This document shows positions 12,095 to 35,622 of a stretch of DNA of 64,000 nt, piece after piece; position 1 is the first letter of the stretch, and every line of letters starts with the position of its first letter. The notes below the pieces were generated by a model. It was given only the letters and a program-made list of their open reading frames with translations. It was not told the DNA's origin and did no database searches. Source of the DNA: Patescibacteria group bacterium (GTDB lineage: Bacteria > Patescibacteriota > Microgenomatia > JAMCZE01); NCBI GenBank assembly GCA_023380635.1, contig JAMCRP010000001.1, positions 405,200-469,199 of the forward strand. The letters run 5' to 3'. The position numbers and the translations under genes were made by a program.

Positions 12095-13865
12095 ATTGTA
12101 CTTCCAACAAGTGTTCCGGAATGTCGGCAATAAAGCGGCTGATCATGTTTTCCGAGCGGGTACCAAAAAACAATCGCCGCCGCGCGTAGGTCAGGTATAA
12201 CTTTTGTTTAGCCCGGGTGATGCCCACATAGCAGAGTCGGCGTTCTTCTTCCATTTCCAGTCTATCCATTAACGCCCGGCTGTGGGGAAACAACCCCTCT
12301 TCCATTCCCACCATAAAGACCACCGGAAATTCCAGACCCTTAGCGCTGTGGAGAGTCATGAGAGTCACGGCGTTGTTACTGACCCGGCGGTTACTTTCTC
12401 TTTCTACCAGAGCGACATTTTCCAAAAATTCCTCAAGCTTCGGAAATTCCTGGGCCACTGATCGCAACTCTTTAATGTTTTCCAATCTTGCCAGATCTTC
12501 TTCGTTCTCTTGGTCAAACAGTTCCAGATAACCGGTAGCTTTCAAAACATCGTCGAGTAGTTCCAATGTTTGTTTCTTGCTGTAGTCGGTGGTCTGTAAT
12601 CGGTAGTCTTCAAATTTCTCCAGTCTTCCCTTACCAAGTTTCTCGATTCTTTTATAGGAAACCGCGTCTTTGGGATTATGAAAATAGCGAAGATAGGACA
12701 GGACATCTTTTATTTCTTTTCTTTCGTAAAATCGGGTACCTCCAACCAACAAATAAGGTATGCCCTCGTGTAAAAACGCTTCTTCCAGAACCCGTGATTG
12801 GGCGTTGGTCCTGTAAAGCACCGCGTAATTAGAGTAGTTTATTGGTTTACTGGGTGACTGCTTTATTGTTTTTATTATATAGAGCGCTTCATCTTGTTCG
12901 TTTCTCGCTTCGTATAAATGAATTTTTTCTCCTCCATTAGATTCAGTCCACAACTTGAGTATCGGGTGGGACTTATTTTTGGAAATCACATGGAAAGCAG
13001 CGTCGAGAATTTTTTGCGTGGACCGGTAGTTTTGTTCCAGATTAAAAGTTTGGACCCGGGGAAACTCCGCTTTAAATTTTAAGAGATTGCGGTAGTCGGC
13101 TCCCCGCCAGGAATAAATGCTTTGGGAAAAATCCCCGACAACGCAAATGTTTTGGTATTTTTTAGCCAACAGCCGCGTCAGTTCAAATTGGGCGTTATTG
13201 GTGTCCTGATATTCGTCAACCAGAACATATTTCCAGCGCTCCTGGTATTTTTCTAAAGTATTTTTAGAGGTACGAAACAGCCGCACTGTCTCCATTATCA
13301 GATCGTCAAAATCCAAGGCATCGGCTTCCTTTAGGGCTTTTTGATAACTAAGGTATATCTGAGCCACGGTTTCCTGCCAGAAACCCCGGGCGTATTGGGG
13401 ATAGTCCGTTGCGGATATCAGTTGGTTTTTGGCCCCGTTAATGGTTGCCAACACCGCGTTCGGATTGAAATTTTTTGTCGAGATGTCCATTTTCTTCATG
13501 ATATCTTTAATCAGGTCCGAAGAATCGTTGTCGTCATAAATAACATACTTGGAAGAAATGCCGATTTCTTTGCCGTCGACGCGCAAAATTTTGGCGCAAA
13601 TACTATGGAAAGTACCAGCTAACGGCGAGCGGCCGTCAACCAATTGCAGTAACCGCTCCTTCATTTCGTTGGCCGCTTTATTGGTGAAAGTTACCAGGAG
13701 AATTTCTTCCGGGGCCACCTTTTTCTCCGCCATCAGGTACGCAACTCGGTATGTTAAGACCCGGGTTTTACCTGACCCCGCCCCGGCCAAAACCAAGACC
13801 GGTCCCTCGGTTGCCCGCACCGCTTCCTGCTGTTTACTGTTTAGTTTAGATAAAAGCTCTTCCAT
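12072..13865 (-). CDS. uvrD: UvrD/PcrA-family DNA helicase (short form)
   Basis: LVLAGAGSGKTRVLTYRVAYL (Walker A), FTNKAANEM, VDEYQDTN, YRSTQKIL and TLHSAKGLEFPVVF motifs; 597 aa. Confidence 0.85.
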   Translation of the reverse strand: MEELLSKLNSKQQEAVRATEGPVLVLAGAGSGKTRVLTYRVAYLMAEKKVAPEEILLVTFTNKAANEMKERLLQLVDGRSPLAGTFHSICAKILRVDGKEIGISSKYVIYDDNDSSDLIKDIMKKMDISTKNFNPNAVLATINGAKNQLISATDYPQYARGFWQETVAQIYLSYQKALKEADALDFDDLIMETVRLFRTSKNTLEKYQERWKYVLVDEYQDTNNAQFELTRLLAKKYQNICVVGDFSQSIYSWRGADYRNLLKFKAEFPRVQTFNLEQNYRSTQKILDAAFHVISKNKSHPILKLWTESNGGEKIHLYEARNEQDEALYIIKTIKQSPSKPINYSNYAVLYRTNAQSRVLEEAFLHEGIPYLLVGGTRFYERKEIKDVLSYLRYFHNPKDAVSYKRIEKLGKGRLEKFEDYRLQTTDYSKKQTLELLDDVLKATGYLELFDQENEEDLARLENIKELRSVAQEFPKLEEFLENVALVERESNRRVSNNAVTLMTLHSAKGLEFPVVFMVGMEEGLFPHSRALMDRLEMEEERRLCYVGITRAKQKLYLTYARRRLFFGTRSENMISRFIADIPEHLLEVQFSSYIGD

Positions 13866-13888
13866 CGTGTTAGAATATTTTAGTCGTA

Positions 13889-14569
13889 ATGGAAAACAAT
13901 TTCTTAATCGTCGCCAATTGGAAAGCCTTCACACCTGAAACTAAAAAATGGTTTCAGGAATTTTCAATTCGAAATTTACAATTCGAAAACAAAATCGAAA
14001 TTGCGATCGCCCCCTCATTCCCATTAATTTCCAGTGTTTCTCAAGAAATTCAAATTTCAAATTTAAAATTTCAAATTGCTTCGCAGGATGTTTCCCGATT
14101 TCCCGAAGGGCCGTATACCGGTGAAGTCCCGGCCGCTATTTTAGCAAAAATTGGCGTGAAATATTGCCTCGTGGGCCACTCGGAACGACGCAAAAATTTT
14201 GGCGAAATGGCAGATATTGTAGCCGAAAAAGTTAAACAACTTTTGGCAAACGGAATTACTCCGATTGTCTGCGCCCGCAATCTGTCAGATATTCCCGATG
14301 TTCCTAATTTGCCCTATGTCATGTACGAACCCGAAGAAGCCATCAGCACCAACGGAATTTATCATCCGGAGTCGCCGGAAAACATTAATAAAGTCCTGTC
14401 TGAGTGGCAAACCATTCTTCCCGGGACGAAATTTTTATATGGCGGCAGTGTTAATCCTGATTTCAAATTTCAAATTTCAAATTTCAAATTAATCTCTGGT
14501 CTTGTTGTCGGTCACGCCTCTTTAGATTCGGCTTCGTTTTCTGCTATTATTAATTCTCTGCAATCATAA
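13889..14569 (+). CDS. tpiA: Triose-phosphate isomerase
   Basis: ANWK, GHSERR, YEPEEAI and YGGSVN motifs. Contains three stretches encoded by AATTTCA heptamer repeats. Confidence 0.85.
   Translation: MENNFLIVANWKAFTPETKKWFQEFSIRNLQFENKIEIAIAPSFPLISSVSQEIQISNLKFQIASQDVSRFPEGPYTGEVPAAILAKIGVKYCLVGHSERRKNFGEMADIVAEKVKQLLANGITPIVCARNLSDIPDVPNLPYVMYEPEEAISTNGIYHPESPENINKVLSEWQTILPGTKFLYGGSVNPDFKFQISNFKLISGLVVGHASLDSASFSAIINSLQS
13961..14003. repeat. AT-rich heptamer-type repeat (AATTTCA / AATTCGA variants) inside tpiA coding sequence
   Basis: ttttcaattcgaaatttacaattcgaaaacaaaatcgaaattg; encodes NLQFENKIEI. Confidence 0.6.
14046..14078. repeat. Heptamer repeat (CAAATTT)n inside tpiA
   Basis: aaattcaaatttcaaatttaaaatttcaaattg; encodes EIQISNLKFQIA. 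Confidence 0.6.
14458..14490. repeat. Heptamer repeat (TCAAATT)x4 inside tpiA
   Basis: tgatttcaaatttcaaatttcaaatttcaaatt; encodes DFKFQISNFKL. Confidence 0.65.
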
Positions 14570-14571
14570 AC

Positions 14572-15663
14572 ATGCCCTGGAAACGATTCAAGCGAAAAAT
14601 TTTTTCCCGGCCACGGCTAATCCGGTCAATTGGCATTGGAATTATTTGTTTCGCTTTCCTGGCTTTTATTTTTTATCTTTTATCCCCGTATTTGTCCCCC
14701 GTAGTAAAAACCGGCCAGAAAATTATTCTGCCGCAAAATAACTTTACTCTGAAAAATGATAACGGCCGAACCAATATCCTGGTTTTGGGCGTGGGCGGAG
14801 GAACTCACGACGGGCCGAATCTAACAGATACGATGATTGTCGTTTCGGCTGTAACTAAACTACCAAAAGATAACACTCCCGTACCGCCAATAACCTTAAT
14901 TTCTATTCCCAGAGATATCTACCTGGACTCTTTGCCGGGAAAAATCAACAGCGCTTATGACCTTGGAGGCTTAACCCAGGCGGAAACTGCCGTGGCTACG
15001 GTTACCGGTCTGCCAATCCATTATGCCGTGAGGATTGATTTTTCGGTCTTCGAAAAAATTATTGACACCATCGGCGGCATTGATGTGAATGTGACAAATA
15101 CTTTAGACGACTATCAGTATCCTATTGATGGTAAAGAAAATGATACCTGCGGTTTTTCTGAGGCGGAAGTGGCTTCCCGGGCAGCAACTATTATTGACGA
15201 CCAGACAGCCTTTGCCGCTTTCCCCTGCCGCTATGAACATTTGCATTTTGATCCCGGTCTGCAACACATGGACGGAACCACGGCTCTAAAATTTGTCCGC
15301 AGCCGCCATGCTCAGTGGCCGGAAGGCTCGGATTTTGCCCGTTCCCAGCGTCAGCAGCTGGTGATTAAAGCCATCCGGGACAAGGTTTTTACTTTACCGT
15401 CGCTTCTCAATGTCGGCCAGGATCTGGCCATTTATAACCAGCTGAAATCCCATATCGACACCGATTTTGATTTTTCCTCGCCGCAGGATCTTCTAAACTT
15501 GGCTCTAAAATACCGCAGCGCCTCGCTACGCAGCATCACTCTGGACGAAAATGTCTTAGTTAATCCTCCACAAGACCAAAGGGGTTGGATCCTAATACCC
15601 AAAAACGGCTCCTGGGATGAAATTCACCAGCTGATCGCTACAGAATCAGGCCAAGCCCAATAA
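14572..15663 (+). CDS. LytR-CpsA-Psr (LCP) family cell-envelope polymer transferase
   Basis: N-terminal TM anchor, ILVLGVGGG, DTMIVVS and ISIPRDIYL motifs of the LCP domain; 363 aa. Confidence 0.8.
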   Translation: MPWKRFKRKIFSRPRLIRSIGIGIICFAFLAFIFYLLSPYLSPVVKTGQKIILPQNNFTLKNDNGRTNILVLGVGGGTHDGPNLTDTMIVVSAVTKLPKDNTPVPPITLISIPRDIYLDSLPGKINSAYDLGGLTQAETAVATVTGLPIHYAVRIDFSVFEKIIDTIGGIDVNVTNTLDDYQYPIDGKENDTCGFSEAEVASRAATIIDDQTAFAAFPCRYEHLHFDPGLQHMDGTTALKFVRSRHAQWPEGSDFARSQRQQLVIKAIRDKVFTLPSLLNVGQDLAIYNQLKSHIDTDFDFSSPQDLLNLALKYRSASLRSITLDENVLVNPPQDQRGWILIPKNGSWDEIHQLIATESGQAQ

Positions 15664-16975
15664 CTATTGCCCCTATTCCACCGCCAAGAATCAACAGGGT
15701 GGTTTCCAAAGCTCCGGTCGTTGGCGTTTGCGGAGGTTGAGCCGGCGGCTGGTTTTCCGGGGTAGCGGTGGGCGTGGCCGGCGGTTCCTCAATTGGTTGC
15801 GGCGTCGGTGTGGGTGCCGGCGCACAATCAGCGTCAGCGGAGCAGGTGTCCTGGCCCAGGCCATTTACTTTAACACAGGCGTTATTTACGCAGGCAAAGT
15901 GCGAAGTCGTGGCCGAAGGTGTTCCTGAAGTCACCGGCAAGATGGAAGTGTCCGCGGAGACATAAAAAGTTCTGGTGATGGTTTGGGTTGTTCCGTCAGG
16001 ATTAACCACCGTGATTGTGGCCGTGTGCTGCCCGGGAGAAAGGGCGGCCGGCGGGGTCCAGGACCAGTTGCCGCTTGGATCAGCTTTTACCGTTCCTGAA
16101 TAAACCGTCGACGAATGCACGGTAATAGAGACCATCTGGTTGGGTCCGGCAGTGCCTTTAATTGTGGGTAGCGGCGTTGACACCGTTTCGTTATTTTTTA
16201 AAGTCACCTCTAAAGTTCCGCCGCTGGGAGAAGCAGAACCAGTATTAAGACTTACCTGAAAACCTGTCGCGCCGGAAGAAGTCGCTGTCGGTGCCTGAAC
16301 CTGGCCGTTTTGTCCACAACTGGTGCTGTCACCGATTTTAACCGTCGGCAGCGGTTTATCCTGGCCATTAGTACAACTTATGGTTGCCGCGGTTCCGTCA
16401 GCCGCATAAATCTTCACTGTTTCCGCCTGACCTGCCGTAGTTACTACCGGCAGAACATAACTTCCCGAGGCGTTCGTTAAAGCTGCTACTTTCTCTGTTG
16501 GTTTATCGGTCTGCCAGACCACAATCGCATCAGACAGCGGCACACCCGTCGTGTCCGTCACTTTGCCAAAAATCGGATCGGTTACCTGATTATCAGGAAC
16601 CATTTTGGTTGTCACCTGAAGCGGTTGCCCTGAAGGAGCGTCGCTGACTTTGACATAATAAGTCGTAGCCGCCGTAAGACCGGTTACCCGGATAAAATGG
16701 CTTGCTGACTGACCATTGTCGGTCGCCGTTTCATTTGTTGCCCCTTCACTAAGACCGTAGGAAACCACGCCCACTGTCTTGCTCTGGGCAACCCAAAAAA
16801 CCGTGAAGCTGGTGTCGGAAACATTGGCGATATCAGCTGGCACCAGCAAAATCTGGTCGGAACTGGCTTTGGAAAATAAACTGGTCACATTTTTAACCAG
16901 AGAGGTTGTCACGGCCATTACTCCCACCAGAGCGACAACCATTATTAATCCGACAGCCGTAGGAATTTTTCTCAT
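15638..16975 (-). CDS. Cell-surface protein with tandem Ig-like/beta-sandwich domains, Pro/Thr-rich stalk and C-terminal TM anchor
   Basis: Signal peptide MRKIPTAVGLIMVVALVGVMA, repetitive beta-rich domains, PTPTPQP linker and terminal LLILGGGIGAIVIGLGLIL helix; 445 aa. Confidence 0.5.
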   Translation of the reverse strand: MRKIPTAVGLIMVVALVGVMAVTTSLVKNVTSLFSKASSDQILLVPADIANVSDTSFTVFWVAQSKTVGVVSYGLSEGATNETATDNGQSASHFIRVTGLTAATTYYVKVSDAPSGQPLQVTTKMVPDNQVTDPIFGKVTDTTGVPLSDAIVVWQTDKPTEKVAALTNASGSYVLPVVTTAGQAETVKIYAADGTAATISCTNGQDKPLPTVKIGDSTSCGQNGQVQAPTATSSGATGFQVSLNTGSASPSGGTLEVTLKNNETVSTPLPTIKGTAGPNQMVSITVHSSTVYSGTVKADPSGNWSWTPPAALSPGQHTATITVVNPDGTTQTITRTFYVSADTSILPVTSGTPSATTSHFACVNNACVKVNGLGQDTCSADADCAPAPTPTPQPIEEPPATPTATPENQPPAQPPQTPTTGALETTLLILGGGIGAIVIGLGLIL

Positions 16976-17163
16976 GGCTCCTTTTTACTTAAAGTAGTAA
17001 AGATATCCTGATTAATTGTCGGCGAGAGTGGCGTCATAATTTTTTCCACATCTGCCGGGATAGTTGACCGGCGAATGTTTGCCGCGGCAGAAGTAATCGC
17101 CCAGGATGCCGCCAGAGCAAAAGCTAAAACCGCGATAATCAACCAGTTGCGATTCTTTTTCAT
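16972..17163 (-). CDS. Small membrane-anchored protein in the pilN/pilO operon (hypothetical)
   Basis: 63 aa with one TM helix; translationally coupled (overlapping stop/start) with the PilO-like gene and the surface protein. Confidence 0.3.
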   Translation of the reverse strand: MKKNRNWLIIAVLAFALAASWAITSAAANIRRSTIPADVEKIMTPLSPTINQDIFTTLSKKEP

Positions 17164-17807
17164 TGGCTTCTGTAATAATATCCCTGACCGGAAACATTAA
17201 TCGATAGCCCGCCTGCTTGGCTCTCTATCCAGGAAAAAGACAGCGACGAAAGTCGGATATAGCGCAGTTGGTTTTCCAGTCTTCCCAGGAAATCTCGGGT
17301 CTGAAGCTCAGTGCCGTTAACCGCCAGAGAAAAATTAACCGTCGGTAAGTTTGCCACTGTCACTGCTTTCTTCTCCGTTTTACCGGCGGTTTTGGCCGCT
17401 TCCGTTGACAAGGGAATATCCTCAAACTGTAAACCGGAAAGCGTGACTCCCGCGGCCGTGGCTGTTTTATGCAAATCAAAAATCAAATCCTGGGGTTGGG
17501 GTTCCGTTGGCAGTGCAGTCTCCAAAAGGGGCAGCTGCGGGCTAATGCGCTGATAGACATCCTCTGCCAAAACCAGCGCGTTAACTTTATCGTTAAGCGC
17601 TTTCAGGATCCGGTTCTGATCGTCAATCTTTTTGCGCAGCCCCAGAATAATATTGATTGTCGGCGACAGGGCAAACAAAATCAGGAAAGTGATTAAAATC
17701 AACGAGGCAATCAGGGCAAAATAACTGCGGACAACCGGATCCGTCAGGACAGGCTGGATGTAGGCAAAGTAGCGCCGGTATCGGGCTGAATTACTGCTTG
17801 TGGCCAT
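17160..17807 (-). CDS. PilO-like type IV pilus assembly protein
   Basis: Bitopic: short cytoplasmic N-terminus, TM helix, coiled coil, then periplasmic domain; gene order after the PilN-like gene. Confidence 0.45.
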   Translation of the reverse strand: MATSSNSARYRRYFAYIQPVLTDPVVRSYFALIASLILITFLILFALSPTINIILGLRKKIDDQNRILKALNDKVNALVLAEDVYQRISPQLPLLETALPTEPQPQDLIFDLHKTATAAGVTLSGLQFEDIPLSTEAAKTAGKTEKKAVTVANLPTVNFSLAVNGTELQTRDFLGRLENQLRYIRLSSLSFSWIESQAGGLSINVSGQGYYYRSQ

Positions 17808-18342
17808 AGTCTGCTTTCAAAGAAAAATCAACAACACCGTAAACATCCTTCTTAGCGATCCGCTCGACATTAATATTGGAAAAGTTCGGTGAGTTTTGAA
17901 ACCCGGTTACCATGGTTTCCAAAAGATTTTCGTCGGCGCTTCCGGCAAAGGCAATCATTTGCGGGTTAATGCTCAGCTGAACCAAAGTTACTCCATTGGG
18001 AATCAGTTTTTTAGTCTGATCGTAAACCGTCAGAGTAGAAGTTGCTTTTTCCAGCTGGCCGGCTTTGTCTACCTTGTCCGAAACTGTCCGAAATTCTTTC
18101 TCAAAATCCGCCAGGGCCAAAACAACCGCCTTTTGCCGGTCAATTTTGTCGTTTAAATCCGCCACCACCGTATCCAGCCAAAAGCGGGATAAAAAGGCCC
18201 CGATAACAATTAATTCTGTTAAAACTACAATCCGCCGGCCCCAGGTCAGCGCCCATTTAATAAATTTTCCTCCCGAGGTGTTTTCCAGTTCATCCCCAGA
18301 CAACAGATTTAATTCCGGTGTGGGAAATTTTTCCTCCGGCAT
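17791..18342 (-). CDS. PilN-like type IV pilus assembly protein
   Basis: N-terminal ELNLLSGDE (INLLP-like) motif followed by a TM helix and coiled coil, typical PilN architecture; 183 aa. Confidence 0.45.
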   Translation of the reverse strand: MPEEKFPTPELNLLSGDELENTSGGKFIKWALTWGRRIVVLTELIVIGAFLSRFWLDTVVADLNDKIDRQKAVVLALADFEKEFRTVSDKVDKAGQLEKATSTLTVYDQTKKLIPNGVTLVQLSINPQMIAFAGSADENLLETMVTGFQNSPNFSNINVERIAKKDVYGVVDFSLKADYGHKQ

Positions 18343-18405
18343 AACTTTAATCAGAATAGATTATCCGAGGCAAAGAATCAATGTAGCAGAAGAAAAAATC
18401 CGGAG

Positions 18406-18705
18406 CTATTTCTTGGCAGTTTTCGTCTTGGCAGCTTTTGGTTTAGCTTCGCCTTTGGCTTTAGTCTCAGTTTTGGGCAAACGCTTAGACAGCCGGCTCT
18501 TTAGACGGGCTGCTTTATTTTTGTGAATCACGTTATTTTTTGCCGCCTTATCCAAAGCGGATACCGCCTTTGAGTAGGCCGCTACCGTCGGGTTTTTTTT
18601 AAAGGCATCGATCAGTTCTTTGACCTGCTTTTTGACCCCACGGTTCTGGGCCTCGTGACTTCGGGCCTGTTTTAATTTCTTAATGGCTGACTGGATTACT
18701 GGCAT
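18406..18705 (-). CDS. rpsT: 30S ribosomal protein S20 with Lys-rich C-terminal extension
   Basis: MPVIQSAIKKLKQARSHEAQNRGVKKQVK aligns to the S20 N-terminus; 99 aa. Confidence 0.8.
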   Translation of the reverse strand: MPVIQSAIKKLKQARSHEAQNRGVKKQVKELIDAFKKNPTVAAYSKAVSALDKAAKNNVIHKNKAARLKSRLSKRLPKTETKAKGEAKPKAAKTKTAKK

Positions 18706-18746
18706 ATGTTAATTCTGATTTTAGCATAGTACAATGCTTCGTAGCA

Positions 18747-20459
18747 ATGGTTAACAACCTGATTAAAAACGGCCGGGATCTTCTCTTTAGGCGCCAAACA
18801 AATATCCTTTCTGCCGCCACGGTTATTGCCGCCGCCGTTTTGCTCTCCCGTCTCCTGGGTCTTTTTAAATACCGTCTCTTGACCGGCCGGTTTTCCGTTT
18901 CGGATATCGGAGTTTTCATTACTGCTTTCCGTTTGCCCAACACCGTCTTTGATCTGATTGTTATGGGCGCTTTGACGACTGCTTTTATCCCGGTTTTTAC
19001 TTCATACATTGCCAAAGATAAAACTGAAGATGCCAACCGCATCGCCTCAACTGTCTTAAATCTGAGTATCCTCATTTTTCTTCTTTTTTCTTTCCTGTTT
19101 TTCGTTTTTACCGACCCGCTGATGCATCTTATTGCCCCGGGCCTGTCGCCACGGGAAATGTCTTTAGCCATTCCTTTCACCCGGATCATGCTTTTGGGCC
19201 AAACCCTGCCGCTCATTTTAGGCAACTTCTTGACCGGAATCCTGCAATCACACAAGCGGTTTCTGGTTCCGGCTCTGGCTCCGGTGGTCTATAACATCGG
19301 CATAATTTTGGGCATTCTTTTCCTGTCGCCGAGTTTAGGGTTGTATGGTGCGGTTTGGGGCGTGGTTCTGGGTGCGTTTCTTTTCATGCTGATCCAGATT
19401 CCCCTGTGCGCCCATTTGGATTTTCATTATCAGCTTAAGTTTGACCTGAGACATCCCGGCGTAACCGAAATCGGCCGACTGATTGTCCCGCGCACTTTGG
19501 GCCTGGCCGTGACCCAGTTGAACTATTTTGCCAACCTGGCTATTTCTTCCTTAATTTCCACCCGGGCGATCACCATCTTTTCTTTTGCCCAGCAACTGGA
19601 ACAACTCCCTATCGGGGTTTTTGCTGCTACTATCGCTCAGGCCGCTTTGCCAACTTTATCTGAAGAACATGGCAAAGATGATAATTTTGCTAACTTTAAA
19701 AAAACTTTTCTTACCTCGCTCCACCAGATTCTGTTTCTGGTTTGCCCGGCCGCGGCCATTCTGATTGTTTTGCGCATTCCGATCGTTCGCCTGGTTTACG
19801 GAGCTTCCAAGTTTGACTGGCCGGCAACTGTCGAAACCGGCCGGACCCTGGCTTTTTTAAGCATTGGCTTAATTGCCGAAGCGGCCATCAATTTATTAGT
19901 CCGGGGATTTTATGCGTTGCATAACAGCAAAACCCCGGTGATTGTGGGCAGCCTGACTGTTTTACTTAATATTGCCCTGTCCTTTAGTTTTATTTTCCTA
20001 TTTCCCATCTGGGGAAAATCGGTTCTCGGTCTGGCTGCCGCTTCCGCCATCGCCGATAGTCTTTACGCCTTAATTTTAATTTACCTGCTTAACCGGGCCG
20101 TCCATTCCTTCGAGCCGCAAGCGTTGCTTTTGCCCGCCGGCAAAATTCTCTTTGCCGCCGCCTTGACCGGTTTTTCCCTCTATGTTCCCATGAAACTTTT
20201 AGACCAGCTGGTTTTTGACACCACCCGCACCGCGCCGTTAATTATGCTTTCCGCCACTGTCAGTCTGATCGGCTTAACCGTTTATCTCTTTTTAACCTGG
20301 GTTCTCCAAATCGAAGAACTGAAGTCTTTCCTGAGCCTGTTTGGCCAGCTCGGGCATGTCTTCTTTGCTGCCGAAGATCAGGTGGAACGGGCGGTTTCCG
20401 ATGTCGTCACCGAGACCGCTCCGGTGGAAATTCCCCCACAAACTCCCGAAGTAAGGTAA
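18747..20459 (+). CDS. murJ: Lipid II flippase MurJ (MviN)
   Basis: 14-TM MOP-superfamily protein with conserved MurJ N-terminus (LLSRLLGLFKYRLLTGRF...FIPVF); 570 aa. Confidence 0.85.
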   Translation: MVNNLIKNGRDLLFRRQTNILSAATVIAAAVLLSRLLGLFKYRLLTGRFSVSDIGVFITAFRLPNTVFDLIVMGALTTAFIPVFTSYIAKDKTEDANRIASTVLNLSILIFLLFSFLFFVFTDPLMHLIAPGLSPREMSLAIPFTRIMLLGQTLPLILGNFLTGILQSHKRFLVPALAPVVYNIGIILGILFLSPSLGLYGAVWGVVLGAFLFMLIQIPLCAHLDFHYQLKFDLRHPGVTEIGRLIVPRTLGLAVTQLNYFANLAISSLISTRAITIFSFAQQLEQLPIGVFAATIAQAALPTLSEEHGKDDNFANFKKTFLTSLHQILFLVCPAAAILIVLRIPIVRLVYGASKFDWPATVETGRTLAFLSIGLIAEAAINLLVRGFYALHNSKTPVIVGSLTVLLNIALSFSFIFLFPIWGKSVLGLAAASAIADSLYALILIYLLNRAVHSFEPQALLLPAGKILFAAALTGFSLYVPMKLLDQLVFDTTRTAPLIMLSATVSLIGLTVYLFLTWVLQIEELKSFLSLFGQLGHVFFAAEDQVERAVSDVVTETAPVEIPPQTPEVR

Positions 20460-20469
20460 AATTAGCCTC

Positions 20470-22230
20470 ATGGATCAAAAGCTCATCCGCAATTTTGCCA
20501 TTATTGCGCACATCGACCACGGAAAATCGACCCTGGCCGACCGATTTTTGGAACTGACCGGCACTGTTGACCGGCGAAATCTCGTGGAACAAACCCTCGA
20601 TACTCACCCGGTTTCCCGACAGCGCGGGATTACGATACGGCTTTCGCCTGTGACCATGAATTTCAAATTTCAAAATTCAAATTTCAAATTGAATTTGATT
20701 GACACTCCCGGCCATGTGGATTTTTCCTATGAAGTCGAGCGCAGTCTGGCTGCTTGCGAAGGGGCGATTTTATTAGTCGATGCCACTCAAGGCATTCAGG
20801 CTCAGACTCTTTCTCATTTTGATAAAGCCAAAAAATTAGGGTTAAAAATTATTCCGGCCATTAACAAAATCGACATGCCCAACACCCGGGTGGAAGAAAC
20901 TATTGCCGAGCTGGCTCAATTAGTCCAATTAGACAAATCCGCAATTTTTAAAATCTCTGCCAGAACCGGAGACGGAGTAAAAGCGTTATTGGAAGAAGTT
21001 ATCAAAAATGTTCCTCCGCCGGCCGGTAATCCTGATGGCCCTACCAAAACTCAGATCTTTTCTTCGCAATATAACCAACAGCGCGGCGTCGTGGCTTTCG
21101 TTAAAGTTCTGGAGGGAAAACTGACCGGCGAGGTCGGCCACTTCACTCCGTTCATGACCCCGGCCCCATATCTCTCTACAGGCGAAGTCGGTTACCTGTT
21201 AACCAACATTAAAGATCCGGAAAAAATCCACCTGTGGGAAGGCTACCAGCCGCCTAAACCCATGGTCTTCGTCAGTTTTTTTCCGGTTAATCAGGATGAA
21301 TTCAATTTACTTGAGGACGCTTTAAAAAAGCTGCGCCTCAACGACGCGGCCATTACTTTTTCCCCTACCAGTTCCAAAGCCTTGGGGCGAGGTTTTCGCT
21401 GCGGTTTCCTGGGTCATTTGCACGCTGAGGTCTCCCAGGAAAGATTAGAAACTGACTTTAATCTCTCAATTATTGCCACCGCTCCGACTGTAGAGTACAA
21501 GATTTTGGGTGACAGCGAGACGAATTCCTTAACTCCGAGCGGCCACCTCGGCGGAGCCGCGAGCCATGAGCCAGAAGCGAATAGCTCGTTTGCAGCGCAG
21601 GAAGTTAAGGATGGTCGAGCTGGCAGGACCCAAAATCTTTGGGCAGAGCCTTGGATCAAAGCAACAATTATTACGCCTCAGGCTTATGTCGGTGCAGTCA
21701 TTACCCTTTGTGAAGAACGCCGGGGAAAACTGATAAACATGGAGTACCACGGCACCGGGGTCACTTTATTTTACGAACTGCCCTTGGCGGAAATCATTAC
21801 CGATTTTTTTGACCAGTTAAAAAGCAAGTCATCAGGCTTTGCCAGTTTTGATTACGAATTCTGGGAATACCGGCCTTTTGACGCCGTACAACTGGTTATC
21901 CTGATTAATCATGAATCTATTGACGCTTTTTCTCAGATGATGGAAAAGACCCGGGCGGAAAAATTCGGAAAGAGAATCGTAGAAAAACTGGCGGAAATCA
22001 TTCCCCGCCAACAAATTCCTATTCCTATCCAGGCAAGTATTAATGGTCAGGTCGTCGCCCGGGCGGACATTAAGTCTTTCCGTAAAGATGTCACGGCGAA
22101 ATTATACGGCGGAGATGTTACCCGGCGGATGAAATTATTGGAAAAACAAAAAAAAGGCAAGGAAAAGATGAAGCAAATCGGTAAGGTCCAAATCCCGGGT
22201 GATACCTTCCTCAAGGTCTTCAAAACATGA
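20470..22230 (+). CDS. lepA: Elongation factor 4 (LepA)
   Basis: AIIAHIDHGKSTLADR (G1), DTPGHVDF (G3), NKID (G4) and LepA-specific C-terminal domain. Carries a heptamer-repeat stretch and a 141-bp GC-rich in-frame segment. Confidence 0.9.
   Translation: MDQKLIRNFAIIAHIDHGKSTLADRFLELTGTVDRRNLVEQTLDTHPVSRQRGITIRLSPVTMNFKFQNSNFKLNLIDTPGHVDFSYEVERSLAACEGAILLVDATQGIQAQTLSHFDKAKKLGLKIIPAINKIDMPNTRVEETIAELAQLVQLDKSAIFKISARTGDGVKALLEEVIKNVPPPAGNPDGPTKTQIFSSQYNQQRGVVAFVKVLEGKLTGEVGHFTPFMTPAPYLSTGEVGYLLTNIKDPEKIHLWEGYQPPKPMVFVSFFPVNQDEFNLLEDALKKLRLNDAAITFSPTSSKALGRGFRCGFLGHLHAEVSQERLETDFNLSIIATAPTVEYKILGDSETNSLTPSGHLGGAASHEPEANSSFAAQEVKDGRAGRTQNLWAEPWIKATIITPQAYVGAVITLCEERRGKLINMEYHGTGVTLFYELPLAEIITDFFDQLKSKSSGFASFDYEFWEYRPFDAVQLVILINHESIDAFSQMMEKTRAEKFGKRIVEKLAEIIPRQQIPIPIQASINGQVVARADIKSFRKDVTAKLYGGDVTRRMKLLEKQKKGKEKMKQIGKVQIPGDTFLKVFKT
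20658..20694. repeat. Heptamer repeat (AATTTCA-type) inside lepA
   Basis: gaatttcaaatttcaaaattcaaatttcaaattgaatttga; encodes MNFKFQNSNFKLNL between G-domain motifs. Confidence 0.65.
21499..21639. mobile_element. 141-bp GC-rich in-frame segment bounded by perfect 11-bp inverted repeats (MITE-like insertion within lepA)
   Basis: AAGATTTTGGG at 21499-21509 and CCCAAAATCTT at 21629-21639. Interior is about 60% GC against about 45% flanking. Length is 47 codons, and LepA here is about 20 aa longer than E. coli or B. subtilis LepA in this loop. Confidence 0.4.
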
Positions 22231-22240
22231 TATTCTGAAA
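22227..22240 (+). promoter_or_regulatory. Conserved upstream motif ATGATATTCTGAAA (copy 1)
   Basis: Identical 14-mer lies 3-4 nt before the start of the 22244 gene and overlaps the lepA stop; second copy at 24487. Confidence 0.4.
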
Positions 22241-22243
22241 GCG

Positions 22244-24484
22244 ATGAAGATCGGTCTGGCCGTTCTTATTTTGCTGTTATTTGTTCTTGTTCCTAAACCC
22301 GTGCTGGCTGATGCCGATTTTTGTCCCGGTCCGGGAAATAATCTCATTGACAATATCAGCCCGCAGGTTCTGGAAAATTTGCATACCAACGCCGGCAGTC
22401 CCAACTGTTGGCTCACGGCTACTTTTCTTCTGCGCACCAACGACCTTTCCAGCCCCAATTTGAAAATTTTTTTCCAGAAAGCGGCGGAAAATAAAATCTT
22501 TCCCATCATCAGAATCGGCACGGAAAATAGCGGTTCTAAATGGCCGGCTTTTACCACCCAACTCGCCCAAACTGACGCGACTTATTTAAATCAGGCCGTG
22601 GCCGCCTCCGGTTTTCCCAAAGAGATTTATGTGGAAATGGGCAATGAAGTAAATGCCGCTGACGAATGGGGCGGTAATCCGAGTCCGGAAAGTTATGCCG
22701 CCACTTTTATTCCGTTTGCCGAAAATCTTTCCGCCGTGAAAATAATGCTGCCCCCTTTAATTCTTAACCCGGCGGCAGCTATCGACTACAACACCTATTA
22801 TCTGAAGCTCAAACAAGCTCTCGACCAGCAACTGTCACAAAAATTCAGCTGCAGTTTGGATATTGATCCTCTCGACCGGTGCCGTCAAAAGATTGACGAC
22901 TGGCTGGATACCAATATTTCCGCTTACGCCTTAAATCTTTATCCACCCCCGGGTGTTGAAGACACGGGACAAAAGACCGGCTATATTTTGGCGGACAAAG
23001 ACAAAGTCCTGAAGGCCTTGCAGGACACAGGCTTTAAAATTGACAGTAAAAAATTTCTCATTACAGAAATTGGTCTGGCCAACGGTGTCTATCCTCCACC
23101 GGCCGGAGAGCAAGCCTGTCATTTTTATCAGGCCATTTTAAATTCCAGCCAGGGAAACAACTTCCTGGCGGCCACTATCTACTCGCGTGATGACCGACTG
23201 CGGGTTCACGCGTACTACTATCCCACCGGCGCTTGTTCTTCCAGTACCGAGTATGACAAAGGCAACGAAAAAAGCGTCATTAATCTTGGCGGCTCAGTTA
23301 CTTATGGTTCCGGTAGTGGCTACCCACAGGATACCAGCATTGTTTATCCTCCTTTGGGTTCTTTAGAGCAATGTCCGGATGCTACCAAGGCCCAAACCAC
23401 TCAAACCTGTTCGCCGACCAACCAACCGGGCAACATTTGTAATTCCGAATGCAGTCCGCCGCTGGAAATTGACCAGAATCTGCAACTTTCCGATACCGGC
23501 AGTTGTTTGACTAACGGCTCAGGCACCTGCTACGCCCAAATTAAAATCCAGGACAATAAGATTCCGGTGCCGGGACAAATCCAGCAGTTGGGCGATTATT
23601 TTGAAAGATTGGTGCCCTATTTTACTTCTCCGACCCAGCAAAACGACTTGCGCTGTAAATTCATTAAATATGTCAAGGACAATCCCAATTCCAAATATAA
23701 AGATCTGAAAATCGACGGGAAACTGGTTTCATCTCTGCCTTGCGATCCGACCCTTGCCGGCTGGTCCCAAATCCCGCTTGTCCCCAATGACGATTCTCTG
23801 GGCAAGATCGAATTTGTCAGTCCCAGTCTGGCCACTGTTCAGCCCGTCACCGTTTCCCTGCCGGAAATCCAACGACTGAACCTCTCCACTAAAATTTTGC
23901 AGCAAGCTCTGGTGCCAACCCAAACCTATCAACCTAAAACCTACGGCAAAGCTATTACTTTAAATTTGGAAAACAACGCCTGTAATCCGACGCCGACCTG
24001 GGAAAATCTTTACGGCGCCGATCTGGATCGGGGCGTCAGCTGTAACTTCGGCAATTTAAAACCGCTGGCCGGGCAAGATAATCTTTCCGGTTGCGTTCTT
24101 TTGCCAGACGGCACTTTGGAATGTCAGCGCAACGAAGCCGGAGGGACTCCGGGTTATCGTCAGGTGGCCGGAGCCCAAGCCACCGTTCAGATCCGCACCG
24201 TTTTCCCCCATCTTTTTGAAGCTTCTGAACAGTCTATTTCCTTCATGCAGGGCTTTTTGCAGCTCTTCCGCCCCGAAGAAGTGGAAAAGTTTAAAGAAGC
24301 CTACACTCCGATTCCGGCTGCGGTCGACGGCGTCAAGTATGAATTAACAGGAAGCTCCGGCCTGGCGATTAATGACGCCGGCCACAAACAAAATGGCTGG
24401 CAGCTGTTTTTCTATAACCTTGGCGGCATCTGGAACGCCCGCAATTTTGTCTTCCAAACTCTCGGTCTGCCGGTTAGCAAGTAG
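22244..24484 (+). CDS. Secreted Cys-rich protein with a possible N-terminal glycoside-hydrolase-like (GH5-like TIM barrel) domain
   Basis: Signal peptide MKIGLAVLILLLFVLVPKPVLA. EMGNEVN and ITEIGL resemble the GH5 acid/base and nucleophile motifs (weak). Many Cys in the C-terminal 400 aa. Start moved to ATG 22244 within track ORF 22199-24484. Confidence 0.45.
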   Translation: MKIGLAVLILLLFVLVPKPVLADADFCPGPGNNLIDNISPQVLENLHTNAGSPNCWLTATFLLRTNDLSSPNLKIFFQKAAENKIFPIIRIGTENSGSKWPAFTTQLAQTDATYLNQAVAASGFPKEIYVEMGNEVNAADEWGGNPSPESYAATFIPFAENLSAVKIMLPPLILNPAAAIDYNTYYLKLKQALDQQLSQKFSCSLDIDPLDRCRQKIDDWLDTNISAYALNLYPPPGVEDTGQKTGYILADKDKVLKALQDTGFKIDSKKFLITEIGLANGVYPPPAGEQACHFYQAILNSSQGNNFLAATIYSRDDRLRVHAYYYPTGACSSSTEYDKGNEKSVINLGGSVTYGSGSGYPQDTSIVYPPLGSLEQCPDATKAQTTQTCSPTNQPGNICNSECSPPLEIDQNLQLSDTGSCLTNGSGTCYAQIKIQDNKIPVPGQIQQLGDYFERLVPYFTSPTQQNDLRCKFIKYVKDNPNSKYKDLKIDGKLVSSLPCDPTLAGWSQIPLVPNDDSLGKIEFVSPSLATVQPVTVSLPEIQRLNLSTKILQQALVPTQTYQPKTYGKAITLNLENNACNPTPTWENLYGADLDRGVSCNFGNLKPLAGQDNLSGCVLLPDGTLECQRNEAGGTPGYRQVAGAQATVQIRTVFPHLFEASEQSISFMQGFLQLFRPEEVEKFKEAYTPIPAAVDGVKYELTGSSGLAINDAGHKQNGWQLFFYNLGGIWNARNFVFQTLGLPVSK

Positions 24485-24486
24485 AT

Positions 24487-24500
24487 ATGATATTCTGAAA
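24487..24500 (+). promoter_or_regulatory. Conserved upstream motif ATGATATTCTGAAA (copy 2)
   Basis: Same 14-mer 3 nt upstream of the pilin P1 start (ATG 24504). Confidence 0.4.
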
Positions 24501-24503
24501 ATA

Positions 24504-25283
24504 ATGAAGAAAATTGTCGGGCTTTTAATTTTTTTCTTAATCATCTTCGCCAAACCGGCCTTGGCTGTTGATACCTGCGACGCAACCCAATACAATAAGA
24601 GCGCAAGCCATCTTGTAGAATGGTTCAAAACCGAAACTCCAAAAAGCTGCCCGTCTGATGAGTGTCTAAACAGCCGTTCAGACCAATTAACCAAAGTGGT
24701 TTTAGAATGCTGGCCAAAAGGGTCGACAACCCAATCACCAGAGTGTTGGCCAGGATGTACAATATTAAATCCCGCAATTCACGCTTCACTTCTGCTTCCA
24801 GGAGTAGGAGGACAAGCATGGCATTGTTACCAAAGTGCAGCAATCCCCGGCTCCATTAATCTGCCGCTGGCAGAGTGTCCCAAGACTAATTGTGGTAGCG
24901 ATGGGCTTTACCAGTATGATAAAAAAAGCGATACCTGCGTTCGAAGGGTAAATACCCCCTGGGACTTGAATACCACTACTTGCCCCGGCGGCGATGTCGG
25001 TGTTGCCACCGCCATTGGCTGCATTCCCACTGGAAACATGGTCGGACCGAGTGGTTTCTTAAGCTTCATTTTGAAATTTGCCCTGGGCATTTCCGGGGCG
25101 GTCATTTTGTTTATGATTATTATGTCCGGCTACACTCTTCTCACTTCCGGCGGCAATCCGGAAAAACTCCAGGTGGTCAAAGAAAACCTGGTCGCGATTT
25201 TTACCGGGCTTCTTATGATTGCTTTCTCCCTGATTTTATTGCAAACTATTGGCGCAGACATTTTGCGCCTGCCGACTTTCTAA
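24504..25283 (+). CDS. VirB2/TrbC-like T4SS pilin paralog P1 with a 190-aa Cys-rich N-terminal ectodomain
   Basis: Signal peptide MKKIVGLLIFFLIIFAKPALA. C-terminal hairpin of two hydrophobic helices joined by TSGGNPEK with a Lys-rich turn, paralogous to the next three genes. Start at ATG 24504 inside track ORF 24372-25283. Confidence 0.55.
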   Translation: MKKIVGLLIFFLIIFAKPALAVDTCDATQYNKSASHLVEWFKTETPKSCPSDECLNSRSDQLTKVVLECWPKGSTTQSPECWPGCTILNPAIHASLLLPGVGGQAWHCYQSAAIPGSINLPLAECPKTNCGSDGLYQYDKKSDTCVRRVNTPWDLNTTTCPGGDVGVATAIGCIPTGNMVGPSGFLSFILKFALGISGAVILFMIIMSGYTLLTSGGNPEKLQVVKENLVAIFTGLLMIAFSLILLQTIGADILRLPTF

Positions 25284-25285
25284 AC

Positions 25286-25690
25286 ATGACCGGAAAAATT
25301 TTGGCTGCGATACCAGAAGACACCGGAGGGGTGCCTTTTACTAATCCTCGGGGCTGGCTGGGCACCCTCGACCCGGGCAACGGCTGGCCCAAAGCCCAGG
25401 GTATTGATTTTTTTACCAAGCAACTCATTCCTTTTCTCATTTCCGGCGCTCTGTTTATTGTTTTTGTTCTGTCACTGATATTTTTAGTCTGGGGCGGTAT
25501 TATGTGGATTACCTCTGGGGGGAACAAGGAGGGCGCCGCCAAAGCCAAAGCCACAATCACTTACGCTTTAGTGGGGTTAATCATTGCTATTTTGGCTTTT
25601 CTCGCCCTGAACATTATTGGGCAATTTTTTGGAGTTAATTTATTAGGTGACCAACCGCCAAGATGTGTTGGGAGCTATTGTAATCTTTAA
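25286..25690 (+). CDS. VirB2/TrbC-like T4SS pilin paralog P2
   Basis: FLVWGGIMWITSGGNKEGAAKAKATITYALVGLIIAIL; start at ATG 25286 inside track ORF 24980-25690. Confidence 0.6.
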   Translation: MTGKILAAIPEDTGGVPFTNPRGWLGTLDPGNGWPKAQGIDFFTKQLIPFLISGALFIVFVLSLIFLVWGGIMWITSGGNKEGAAKAKATITYALVGLIIAILAFLALNIIGQFFGVNLLGDQPPRCVGSYCNL

Positions 25691-25756
25691 CCCTGACTCT
25701 TGACTTGTCCGTGAAAAAGCCTGTATTCTTAATCTATAAACGGGGGAGGTGAAAAC

Positions 25757-26200
25757 ATGAAGAAAAATTTAGTTAAATTTGGAGTTGGAGCAGGAGCCGC
25801 TCTGACCACCCTTTATTGGGGGGTTTTACCGGCGTTGGCCGACACAGTGGGCCTTTGCCCGACTCAAGCTCCCTTTCCGCCCGGATGTGACAACGGAAAA
25901 GCCACTGCAATTAGCGTCGGATCGATTATTTCGTCAGTTTTAAATCTTTTGCTGTTTGTCGCTTTCGTGGCCGCTTTGATTTTCCTGATTATCGGCGGTA
26001 TTAAATGGATCCTAAGCGGCGGCGATAAAGAAGGTACCAGCAAAGCCAAGGAAACAGTCACTTCTGCTTTAATTGGTTTGGCTGTGGTTCTCGCTGCCTG
26101 GATTTTGATTAACATTTTGCTAAGTTTCTTTGGGGTGAGCAGCGGATTAACTGGCCTGACTGTACCAACACTGAATGTTGGCACGGGCACAACTCACTAA
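25757..26200 (+). CDS. VirB2/TrbC-like T4SS pilin paralog P3
   Basis: SD-like GGGGGAGGTG upstream, signal peptide, IGGIKWILSGGDKEGTSKAKETVTSALIGLAVVL. Confidence 0.6.
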   Translation: MKKNLVKFGVGAGAALTTLYWGVLPALADTVGLCPTQAPFPPGCDNGKATAISVGSIISSVLNLLLFVAFVAALIFLIIGGIKWILSGGDKEGTSKAKETVTSALIGLAVVLAAWILINILLSFFGVSSGLTGLTVPTLNVGTGTTH

Positions 26201-26643: not shown

Positions 26644-28275
26644 ATGAAAAAGGCCGTTTTTTTTGGCCTGGCTTTAGCAGTTTTATTTTTGACCCCAAAA
26701 CCAGCCCTAGCCAAGACTGCGCCCAGGTCGGGCAGCTGTTCCACAACTTCATATAATTGTATTGCCGGTACCACTGTAGGAAGCAGCACTTGCAACTGCG
26801 ACGCCACCGGTTCCAATTGTTCTTGGTCCAGTGGAACACCTACAGATACTGATGCTCAAAACAATTCGGGTTGTACCGCCACATCAAATTTATATCCAGG
26901 GAGTTACACCTTTTTTAATCCCACTCCCCAGTCTTTTTCTAACGACCTCTATGGTCAAGCCGGAGCCGATGCCGGAACGGAAATAAACAGCTCAAGATGG
27001 GTAAAGATGGTGGCGTCGGATATTGGCCTTTCTATTGCTGCCGATGCCATTGGCTTGCCCGGCCAACCGAACTCCGTTCAAGCTAGTGCTGTAGGTTTTT
27101 TAGCCCGGGGCATTGATACTTTGGCTTTTAATCCGCCGGCTTCATCGATCCAGTATCTGGCGTACATGGGACGGGAGTTCCATGTACCCGGCACCCCGGA
27201 AACCGCTTACGCCGCGGATAATATCGGCGGCGTGGGTTTCAGCCAACTTAGTCCCATTCTCCAGCTTTGGACTATCGCCCGTAATCTTGCCTATCTGGTC
27301 TTTGCCATCATTTTCGTAATTATCGGTTTAATGATTATGCTGCGGGTTAAAATTGATCCCAAAACCGCTGCTACCATTCAAAATTCCCTGCCAAAAATTG
27401 TCATTGCTCTGGTTTTGGTGACTTTCTCCTACGCCATTGCCGGATTTTTGATCGATATCATGTATGTGTTCCTGGCCTTAATTGTAACTTTAATGAGTCC
27501 GGTTGCCGGCGGTAAGGATATTTTGGAAAACCTTCTTAGCGGTAGCATTTTCAACTATGTAGCCAATGGCCAATTCATGGATGTTTCTACCAGTGCCGCA
27601 GCAGCAGTCGGAAACATTGTTAACGGAATCGTTACTGGCATAAGAGGGGGTAATTCCGTACAAGGCTCTGTTTTAGGACTAGTAACCTCAGGACTTGCCT
27701 TCTTAGTTGTTGCTATTGCCATTTTGGTCGCCCTTTTCCGCACCTGGCTATCCTTGATCGGGGCTTATGCCAATATTATTCTGGCCATTATTGGTTCGCC
27801 CTTAATGCTTATGATGGACGCTATTCCCGGTCAAAACCAGTTTAGTGCGTGGCTTCGGAATATGCTCTCCAACCTCCTGGCTTTTCCAGTAGTTTTTGTC
27901 ATGCTAACCATCGGCTCAGCAATCACGACTAATTTAGGGAGCGGCACGGGTAACGTCGGCACCTCAGGAGGCTTTGTTCCGCCCCTTCTCGGCGCCGGGA
28001 ATATGGAAGCAGCTTCCAGTCTTATCGGATTAGGCATCCTTTTAACTATTCCCAAAGCTGTCAATATTGTCCAGGAAATGCTTAAAACCCCGCCGTTTAA
28101 GTATGGCAACGCCTGGCAAGAGTCTCTGACTGCAGGAGCTACCGGTGCTCAGTTTGCTGGCCGAGGAGCCTTGGAACTTGGTAATGCCGAAATTTTGCCT
28201 GGAGCAAGAGAAGGAGCCAGGAGAAGAGGAATTGTACCGGTAGCTACAGGTTGGATAAGGTCTCAGTTTAGTTAG
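26644..28275 (+). CDS. VirB6/TrbL-like polytopic membrane protein with Cys-rich N-terminal ectodomain
   Basis: Signal peptide, Cys/Ser/Thr-rich region, then at least six TM helices in a TrbL/VirB6-like arrangement with a Gly-rich C-terminus; immediately follows the pilin array; 543 aa. Confidence 0.5.
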   Translation: MKKAVFFGLALAVLFLTPKPALAKTAPRSGSCSTTSYNCIAGTTVGSSTCNCDATGSNCSWSSGTPTDTDAQNNSGCTATSNLYPGSYTFFNPTPQSFSNDLYGQAGADAGTEINSSRWVKMVASDIGLSIAADAIGLPGQPNSVQASAVGFLARGIDTLAFNPPASSIQYLAYMGREFHVPGTPETAYAADNIGGVGFSQLSPILQLWTIARNLAYLVFAIIFVIIGLMIMLRVKIDPKTAATIQNSLPKIVIALVLVTFSYAIAGFLIDIMYVFLALIVTLMSPVAGGKDILENLLSGSIFNYVANGQFMDVSTSAAAAVGNIVNGIVTGIRGGNSVQGSVLGLVTSGLAFLVVAIAILVALFRTWLSLIGAYANIILAIIGSPLMLMMDAIPGQNQFSAWLRNMLSNLLAFPVVFVMLTIGSAITTNLGSGTGNVGTSGGFVPPLLGAGNMEAASSLIGLGILLTIPKAVNIVQEMLKTPPFKYGNAWQESLTAGATGAQFAGRGALELGNAEILPGAREGARRRGIVPVATGWIRSQFS

Positions 28276-30620: not shown

Positions 30621-30730
30621 ATCTTGCTCGAGACGGGCAGATTGCTAGTTTTCCGGCTTTAACGGTTGCGGCACAGCGTCGGAGTTACACCGACTTCCTT
30701 AAACACAATCCAGGGTTAATATGCCAAATC

Positions 30731-35241: not shown

Positions 35242-35622
35242 TGGAGATGGAGGGTGTGACCCCTCGTGTGAAAAAGTGACTTTTAAACATCTACAAGCTT
35301 AGTTAGTTCTGACTCTTGGTACTGCCGGTCAAACTAACAAGAAAGCAGTACCGTGGTTGTTCGTCTTAGGATTACTAAGAAAACCAAACTTAATAACCAG
35401 CATTCCGGCTGTGTTTATGCTCCAGAAACCCCACCGGGAGAAGGTTTAAGAAACAGCTTTAACCCTTTTAGCTATAGATGGGATACCCATCTTGATCCAA
35501 TTGGGCGTAGGCAAATGCTAGTTTTTGATTAGCACTTATCTTTTGAAACCGTCTTTTACGAAGTAGATTTCTTCTTCGGCTTGCCGTTGTCAAAGTGCTT
35601 TTTCGTCGATTCGTACATCCCC
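35241..35622 (-). ncRNA. ssrA: tmRNA (SsrA)
   Basis: Reverse complement begins GGGGATGTACGAATCGACG (tmRNA 5' consensus GGGG...GATTCGACG). The 3' end ...GAGGGGTCACACCCTCCATCTCCAC forms a T-arm plus acceptor pairing with GGGGATG. Lies immediately downstream of smpB on the same strand. Ends are accurate to +/- a few nt. Confidence 0.6.

Follow-up and report, generated by a model that had tools for sequence, protein, structure and literature searches.

An in-frame, hairpin-forming insertion in lepA of a Patescibacteria group bacterium as a possible analogue of Rickettsia palindromic elements

How a palindromic piece of DNA comes to lie in frame within the gene of a conserved translation factor, and what keeps it there, is the question raised by lepA (translation elongation factor 4) of a Patescibacteria group bacterium. 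The gene is located in a stretch of 64,000 nucleotides (contig JAMCRP010000001.1 of assembly GCA_023380635.1, positions 405,200 to 469,199), which was analysed as a whole and is called the window here; coordinates refer to its first letter unless another locus is named. An original prediction, made from the letters of the window, likened a 141-nt segment of lepA to a miniature inverted-repeat element (in the following MITE, for miniature inverted-repeat transposable element) that had inserted in frame and been tolerated in a surface loop. The explanation favoured after follow-up, with moderate confidence, is an in-frame palindromic insertion comparable to the Rickettsia palindromic elements (RPEs), of which the hairpin would be the conserved entity.

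The segment amounts to 47 codons in frame without a stop, and its GC content is 0.61 compared with 0.46 across the rest of lepA, both in agreement with what had been described. Its predicted translation includes the peptide GDSETNSLTPSGHLGGAASHEPEANSSFAAQEVK, and the foreign, disordered part would extend from about G347 to Q388. The terminal inverted repeats had been given as perfect over 11 bp; they are perfect, but by complementarity of the arms they are 12 bp long. Programmed translational bypass of the type known from T4 gene 60 was ruled out, since the segment is open in frame and contains no stop. The parts of the segment and its host gene are listed in Table 1.

Table 1. Positions of the insertion, its parts and its host gene in the window
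Feature	Position	Strand	Basis or remark
Hairpin-forming in-frame insertion, 141 nt	21499..21639	+	codons K344-L390; fold, absence from closest LepAs, pLDDT, score with covariance model R1
Outer stem, left arm AAGATTTTGGGT	21499..21510	+	first 8 nt not kept in the P0005 copy
5' conserved core block GGGTGACA	21507..21514	+	same letters in the P0005 element
Inner stem TCCTTAACTCCGAGCG / CGCAGGAAGTTAAGGA plus variable apical region	21526..21611	+	nested arms 21526-21541 / 21596-21611
Three apical tandem heptamers GAGCCGC GAGCCAT GAGCCAG	21554..21574	+	read from sequence
3' conserved core block GGATGGTCGAGCTGGCAGGACCC	21609..21631	+	21/23 positions identical to P0005; both mismatches in stem 2
Outer stem, right arm ACCCAAAATCTT	21628..21639	+	
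lepA (translation elongation factor 4), in which the insertion lies	20470..22230	+	ORF, 586 aa; Pfam GTP_EFTU, EFG_C, LepA_C
(AATTTCA)n heptamer array in lepA, coding for NFKFQNSNFK	~20659..20693	+	separate from the 141-nt insertion

Evidence for an insertion was obtained from an alignment of 29 LepA sequences, 27 of which are devoid of the insert. The spacing between the motifs TVEY(K/H/Q) and EPW is 49 residues in the window LepA versus 3–4 residues in its closest relatives (79–82% identity over gap-free columns), and the DNA of P0003 presents the empty site as TAT CAC GGC AAT GAA GAA CCC. Neither the segment nor an equivalent native loop is found in the closest relatives. Solved LepAs have a native segment of ~27 residues at this site, which in the Aquifex protein (2ywe) bears no similarity to the insert; set against these ~27 unaligned residues, residues 346–391 of the window LepA bear out the predicted excess of about 20 aa. 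As the relatives have 3–4 residues here and the solved LepAs ~27 unrelated ones, the clade appears to have lost the native segment and the window lineage to have gained another one later. An AlphaFold model computed with the 29-sequence alignment returned a pLDDT of ~31–33 and no secondary structure for residues 348–387, and this disordered segment is bordered by strands at 344–346 and 390–403. Judged by these comparisons, the 141-nt segment is an insertion, and it is predicted to form a disordered loop. The view that it is tolerated in a surface loop is supported by the empty sites of the relatives, by the predicted disorder and by the lack of a codon-position pattern described below, all of which point to an in-frame palindromic insertion in an exposed loop.

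The position of this loop within the protein had to be corrected. Pfam matches of the window LepA comprise GTP_EFTU, EFG_III (a weak match, residues 262–335), EFG_C (residues 393–473) and LepA_C, and all LepA domains are intact downstream of the insert. Because the EFG_III and EFG_C matches bracket the insert, the site is placed between domains III and V, at the junction that harbours domain IV in EF-G; LepA is without domain IV, and the assignment to a "LepA domain IV loop" was wrong. The label of an essential GTPase is likewise not established for LepA, which is dispensable in Escherichia coli. The protein matches NCBI entry MCL4397862.1, from a metagenome-assembled genome (MAG) of a Patescibacteria group bacterium, at 100%, and its overall length is not long for a LepA. 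The compared lepA loci are considered orthologous because gene order is conserved: the order in the window at 12072–26200 is shared with loci L017 and L002 and runs UvrD, TIM, LytR, an Ig-like protein, PilO/PilN, S20, MurJ, LepA, a large unknown protein and type IV secretion system (T4SS)-type pilins. As a separate observation, LepA of this clade is without much of domain II (residues ~215–260, no PF03144 match), and two alignment blocks of P0022 and more distant LepAs are missing from it; the window LepA is both reduced and expanded.

Inverted repeats of this size are common. Per 64 kb of simulated sequence, the mean number of perfect inverted repeats of 12 bp within 200 nt is ~1.5, and 64% of the simulations contain one or more; taken alone, the 12-bp terminal repeat is not significant. 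The hairpin as a whole, however, exceeds chance, because it has a nested second stem, a fold over its full length, a high rank among folding outliers and a homologue with the same fold. All 141 nt form one rod-like hairpin, with −61.6 kcal/mol and z −4.8 for RNA of the + strand and −62.3 and z −5.8 for the − strand, and the proposed check of the RNA fold therefore returned a strong single hairpin; both strands of the window copy fold equally well. As DNA, the segment folds with z −4.7. A GC-corrected sliding scan ranked it as the second-strongest folding outlier of the window, and its nested inverted repeat (Table 1) is the only one there. Two other foldable stretches were noted in the window, both unlike the lepA element: the strongest GC-corrected outlier (27101–27240) lies within an unannotated open reading frame (ORF) of 543 aa (26644–28275), and a stretch with 69% GC (15711–15850) belongs to the C-terminal linker of a Big_13 protein (15638–16975, minus strand).

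A second member of the family was identified in P0005, a LepA from a separate sample (Logan SRR22387777) with a 41-residue insert at the identical lepA site. Its homologous element has 118 nt, is in frame and stop-free, and carries GGGTGACA on the 5' side and GGATGGTCG.G.TGGCAGGACCC on the 3' side, as in the window. The fold architecture is the same, with −59.7 kcal/mol and z −4.1 for the + strand and −53.4 for the − strand, so that z lies between −4.1 and −5.8 across both members and both strands. Overall identity between the elements is 54%; it is highest for the basal core (33/40 positions), followed by the apical part (13/37) and the outer stem (4/16). The 5' and 3' core blocks together form an asymmetric internal loop, GA opposite GCAGG, which is wholly conserved between the two. 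The apical heptamers of the window copy fall, with an offset of ~3 nt, within the 21-nt gap relative to P0005 (window ~21551–21571 in the alignment).

Both elements form every one of the 35 predicted pairs. In twelve of these pairs both partners differ between the elements, compared with 0–1 such double changes in controls with the partners slid by 1–3 columns, a covariation signal that is drawn from two sequences. The peptides have no 5-residue word in common, and neither matched a Pfam family at E ≤ 10. Identity at the three codon positions of the two lepA genes is 0.77/0.87/0.48 outside the insert versus 0.55/0.45/0.52 inside. As there is no codon-position pattern inside the insert, it is the nucleic-acid hairpin that is conserved, and the insert peptide appears not to be under selection. 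Conservation of the pairing and of the basal core could be due to selection or to arm-to-arm copy correction, a known property of quasi-palindromes. G-U wobble pairs were considered as a sign of a sense-strand RNA structure and found unconvincing, as the weak pairs of P0005 belong to its outer stem, which is doubtful.

The internal loop itself, GGGU-GA-CAGC / GCUG-GCAGG-ACCC, is laid out like a kink-turn, with a C-stem, a 3-nt bulge, a G.A pair and an NC-stem; read from the sequence, the C-stem would be CAGC/GCUG, the bulge GCA and 1b.1n a G.A pair. A kink-turn proper (21507–21516 with 21617–21631) was nevertheless rejected, as 2b.2n is G.G and an A is needed at 2b.

The hosts of the two elements are not sisters. 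Of 100 bootstraps of a neighbour-joining tree built on 519 gap-free LepA columns, 77 joined the window LepA to P0014 or P0003 and none joined it to P0005, which was placed with P0015, P0018 and P0020. One ancient gain would require ~8 clean losses, and two gains at one site, or a transfer, are more parsimonious. The age of the element cannot decide between these histories, because synonymous sites are near saturation and the 54% identity of the elements is no higher than theirs.

The same site is occupied by other sequences in related bacteria. When the III/V site of lepA was read in ten lineages, it was empty in one (P0003), contained tandem heptamers in three (P0014 with (CAAATTT)n, P0017, P0009 with GAGCCAC-like units) and hairpins in six (window, P0005, P0058, P0024, P0018 and P0022), the arms of which are often built of heptamers. 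Among lineages, the hairpin sequences are unrelated except for the family of the window and P0005. In P0058 (lepA at L017 10001–11968), a hairpin element of ~75 nt, in which arms of AATTCGC heptamers enclose the core CTCGACAAGCTCGGGATTATCCCGAGCGAAGCCGAAGG, is present at two sites (cores at 10971–10987 and 11321–11337) and is read in two frames, giving RQARDYPERSRR and LDKLGIILSETEG; no third copy was found in the 22-kb locus. P0014 (lepA at L016 393–2225), the nearest relative of the window LepA, carries an identical GC-rich insert of 27 nt, GGCTCGCCTCGATCCGGCGGAGCAGGC, twice, at residues 436–443 and 542–549 (peptide GSPRSGGA). Since P0058 and P0014 have duplicated inserts within lepA, small hairpin inserts appear to be copied around in this clade. 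P0024 (lepA at L018 1501–3414) has an in-frame insert of 41 residues (67–107) that follows the switch region; it folds into a long hairpin (z −5.5) whose arms consist of CAGTTCT-type heptamers, and the second hairpin of this lepA is the one at the III/V junction. A 9-nt match between the apex of the window element and the 27-nt insert of P0014 was marginal (p ~0.04) and was dropped.

In-frame simple-sequence features of this kind are also found elsewhere in the window genome, and the (AATTTCA)n array in lepA belongs to the same class. Further AATTTCA arrays are located in the TIM gene (13959–13988, 14046–14080 and 14459–14490) and between the smpB end and the tmRNA (35628–35683), and the AATTTCA 14-mer has 19 matches versus 2.7 expected. 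The peptides EIQISNLKFQIA and NPDFKFQISNFKLISG of the TIM arrays align in register with native segments of a solved TIM, and these arrays seem to overwrite native sequence without a change in length. In a search of full-text literature, palindromic or heptamer inserts lying in frame in proteins of the candidate phyla radiation (CPR) were not found to be described.

In the favoured explanation, palindromic DNA would have entered the III/V junction of lepA after the split from the closest sampled relatives. The site may have been permissive, as the native segment of ~27 residues had already been lost in the clade, and the insert would persist since the frame is kept and no stop is introduced, so that it is presumably translated as a disordered, hydrophilic surface loop of ~45 residues. 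The hairpin and not the peptide would be kept, above all its basal core (GGGTGACA ... GGATGGTCG.G.TGGCAGGACCC), which includes the asymmetric internal loop. The element could accordingly be selfish or once-selfish DNA within a protein-coding gene, an analogue of the RPEs. Arrival by transposition-like copying is inferred, and as the flanks outside the core are inverted and not direct in both members, copying into the tip of a small pre-existing AT-rich palindrome is suggested.

Several results weigh against this explanation, and most of them concern mobility. The search for further copies yielded the one homologue in P0005, at the same lepA site, and no other copy in the collections searched. 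In the 64-kb window, blastn, nhmmer and an unfiltered search with covariance model R1, which gives the window element 160 bits, found no other copy. Six-frame peptides of both elements, compared with 5.8 billion protein clusters including the NCBI proteome of the source MAG, returned the two LepAs only, and a profile search of 1.84 billion representatives placed spurious repeat proteins on top and revealed no new LepA with an insert. The pattern GGATGGTCNNNNTGGCAGGACCC gave 5 matches in genome contigs and 8 in metagenome contigs, collections that did not include the window's own element; this is about the number expected by chance, all matches were in GC-rich non-CPR genomes, and none had the true 5' partner GGGTGACA or a fitting hairpin. 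A looser gapped pattern produced 99 chance matches in viral contigs, none scoring with the covariance model, and blastn against phage genomes gave no match. These copy searches are weak for diverged copies, and the window represents 64 of at least 559 kb; the same scope applies to the finding that no transposase, integrase or HUH Pfam domain is present in window ORFs of at least 130 aa. No target-site duplication was found, as had already been remarked. Two known copies at one lepA site are unusual for a dispersing element, and selfishness is no obvious explanation for the long-term conservation of a hairpin in a single-copy insertion.

A simple MITE, as originally proposed, is not supported by these data. 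Besides the lack of a target-site duplication, of further copies in the collections searched and of a transposase domain in window ORFs of at least 130 aa, the terminal inverted repeat is not conserved: it is perfect over 12 bp in the window, but the outer 8 bp are wholly different in P0005, and what is conserved is subterminal. In both members, the conserved core is flanked by inverted and not by direct repeats (AAGATTTT/AAAATCTT in one, CGC/GCG in the other), and the sole direct repeat, TTTGGG, has copies 134 nt apart that are incompatible with the frame. From inverted flanks, insertion into, or growth of, a palindrome is to be expected and not cut-and-paste transposition of a MITE. Moreover, a simple MITE that inserts at random would not be expected to recur at one lepA site in two lineages that are not sisters.

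Growth of a palindrome on the spot might account for part of these observations. Heptamer slippage at a permissive loop would be followed by template switching between the arms of a quasi-palindrome, and the "compensatory" changes would then be copy-corrections. The heptamer arrays of P0014 (the nearest relative), P0017 and P0009 at this site, the (AATTTCA)n arrays in several genes of the window genome including lepA, the three apical heptamers inside the 21-nt length difference to P0005, the inverted flanks and the lack of another copy are all consistent with such growth. However, the GC-rich core of ~40 nt is 83% identical in non-sister lineages compared with 48% at lepA third positions, and independent local growth would not converge on one core sequence; close relatives also show a clean empty site without intermediates. 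Local growth is thus considered rather unlikely, and a similar, marginally lower weight is given to a functional nucleic-acid structure under selection by the host, for instance a translation-pausing mRNA hairpin at the III/V boundary or a protein binding or processing site, with the peptide as a by-product. Twelve double-sided pair changes with none broken, despite an identity of 54% that is about the level of synonymous sites, fit this idea, as do the fully conserved internal loop, the flat codon-position pattern and the presence of some hairpin, unrelated in sequence, at this site in six of ten lineages. Yet the structure is missing from most orthologues including the closest ones, the folding energy of the window copy has no strand preference, an Rfam scan of the region returned noise only, no promoter or terminator signal was tied to the insert, and hairpin inserts are also found at other lepA sites in relatives.

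Two further explanations carry far less weight. A diverged native loop, left over from the segment of ~27 residues, would be plausible insofar as ordinary LepAs have a segment at this position and the ends KI... and ...NLWA-EPW are similar to those in relatives, for example xIYE-EPW. It is largely refuted by the absence of any similarity to the native segment, by the 3–4 residues of the closest relatives, and by the jump in GC, a hairpin that spans the whole segment, the lack of a codon-position pattern and the predicted disorder, and is regarded as very unlikely. An assembly or chimera artefact is the least probable explanation. The source is a MAG and assembly errors can create palindromes, but the exact protein is on record both from NCBI and from an independent Logan assembly, and a diverged homologous insert, with the frame kept and no stop in either, was recovered from the unrelated sample SRR22387777.

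Beyond the favoured RPE-like insertion in lepA, a broader proposal can be made tentatively, and with considerable doubt: the window element might belong to an undescribed class of small, structure-dependent hairpin insertion elements of this Patescibacteria clade. GC-rich or heptamer-armed hairpins would copy into palindrome tips inside conserved genes, turn up repeatedly at permissive junctions (for LepA III/V, in six lineages or more) and persist as disordered loops of the translated protein. The window family would be defined by its kink-turn-like basal core, which some enzyme or RNA-binding protein might recognise.

The Rfam scan also revealed two RNAs outside lepA, a tmRNA adjoining smpB (35239–35622, minus strand), which is absent from the ARAGORN output, and an AdoCbl-II riboswitch (30639–30711, minus strand) upstream of a 243-aa ORF (29889–30620).

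In-frame palindromic "selfish DNA" in housekeeping genes has until now been regarded chiefly as a curiosity of Rickettsia. If it also occurs in Patescibacteria, which have reduced genomes and depend on hosts as well, it might be a recurrent outcome of small-genome biology, and the hairpins with compensatory changes, the recurrence at one LepA junction and the tandem heptamers in conserved enzymes are signs in support of this. Part of the odd length variation and of the low-complexity segments in CPR proteins would then be explained, a variation that affects annotation, alignment-based phylogeny and structure prediction. The insert also provides a testable case for the birth of new disordered loops in conserved proteins.

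Among known systems, REP/REPIN elements with their RAYT transposases (PMC3116915; PMC3733652) resemble the lepA element in that they are hairpin DNA of which the structure and not a coding content is conserved. REPINs are, however, extragenic, bear GTAG/CGTC tags and go along with a RAYT gene, whereas the lepA element is intragenic, no GTAG/CGTC tag adjoins its stem, and no Y1 transposase was found in the window. Bacterial MITEs that form in-frame fusions (intragenic ERIC, BOX and Correia-type elements; PMC10969869) are likewise short, non-coding, provided with terminal inverted repeats and carried inside ORFs. They differ from the lepA element, for which no target-site duplication, parent insertion sequence or transposase, or multi-copy family was found and in which it is not the terminal repeat that is conserved. 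Cyanobacterial genomes reportedly contain heptameric short tandemly repeated repetitive (STRR) sequences and small dispersed repeats nested in hairpins. Tandem heptamers with small hairpin inserts and the nested look of a core inside inverted flanks recall the situation in lepA, but the cyanobacterial elements are said to be 21–27 nt long, highly repeated and mostly intergenic, unlike an element of 141 nt that is intragenic, in frame and apparently single-copy. In fungal mitochondria, GC-rich palindromic clusters or double-hairpin elements lie as GC-rich hairpins in AT-richer protein genes, sometimes in frame; these are organellar and eukaryotic and presumably have no sequence relation to the lepA element.

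The closest comparison is with the RPEs, elements of ~150 bp that are found in frame in many Rickettsia genes (PMC10969869) and were described as RPE-1 to RPE-10 by Ogata et al. (2000), as far as summarised in PMC10969869. The window element has no sequence or Pfam similarity to them and comes from another phylum, and RPEs are multi-copy across unrelated genes, whereas here two copies are known, at one lepA site of different genomes. Since copy number, sequence similarity, target-site duplication and conserved termini did not correspond to what characterises RPEs or MITEs, the element is filed under neither. It is nevertheless regarded as working like an RPE: it is a hairpin-forming palindrome in the range of ~100–150 bp (141 nt in the window, 118 nt in the homologue), it lies in frame and stop-free, in the window and in P0005, within a conserved housekeeping gene that is left intact, it adds a peptide at an exposed, tolerant position, which for the window LepA is a prediction (pLDDT ~32), and it is carried by a host-dependent bacterial lineage with a small genome.

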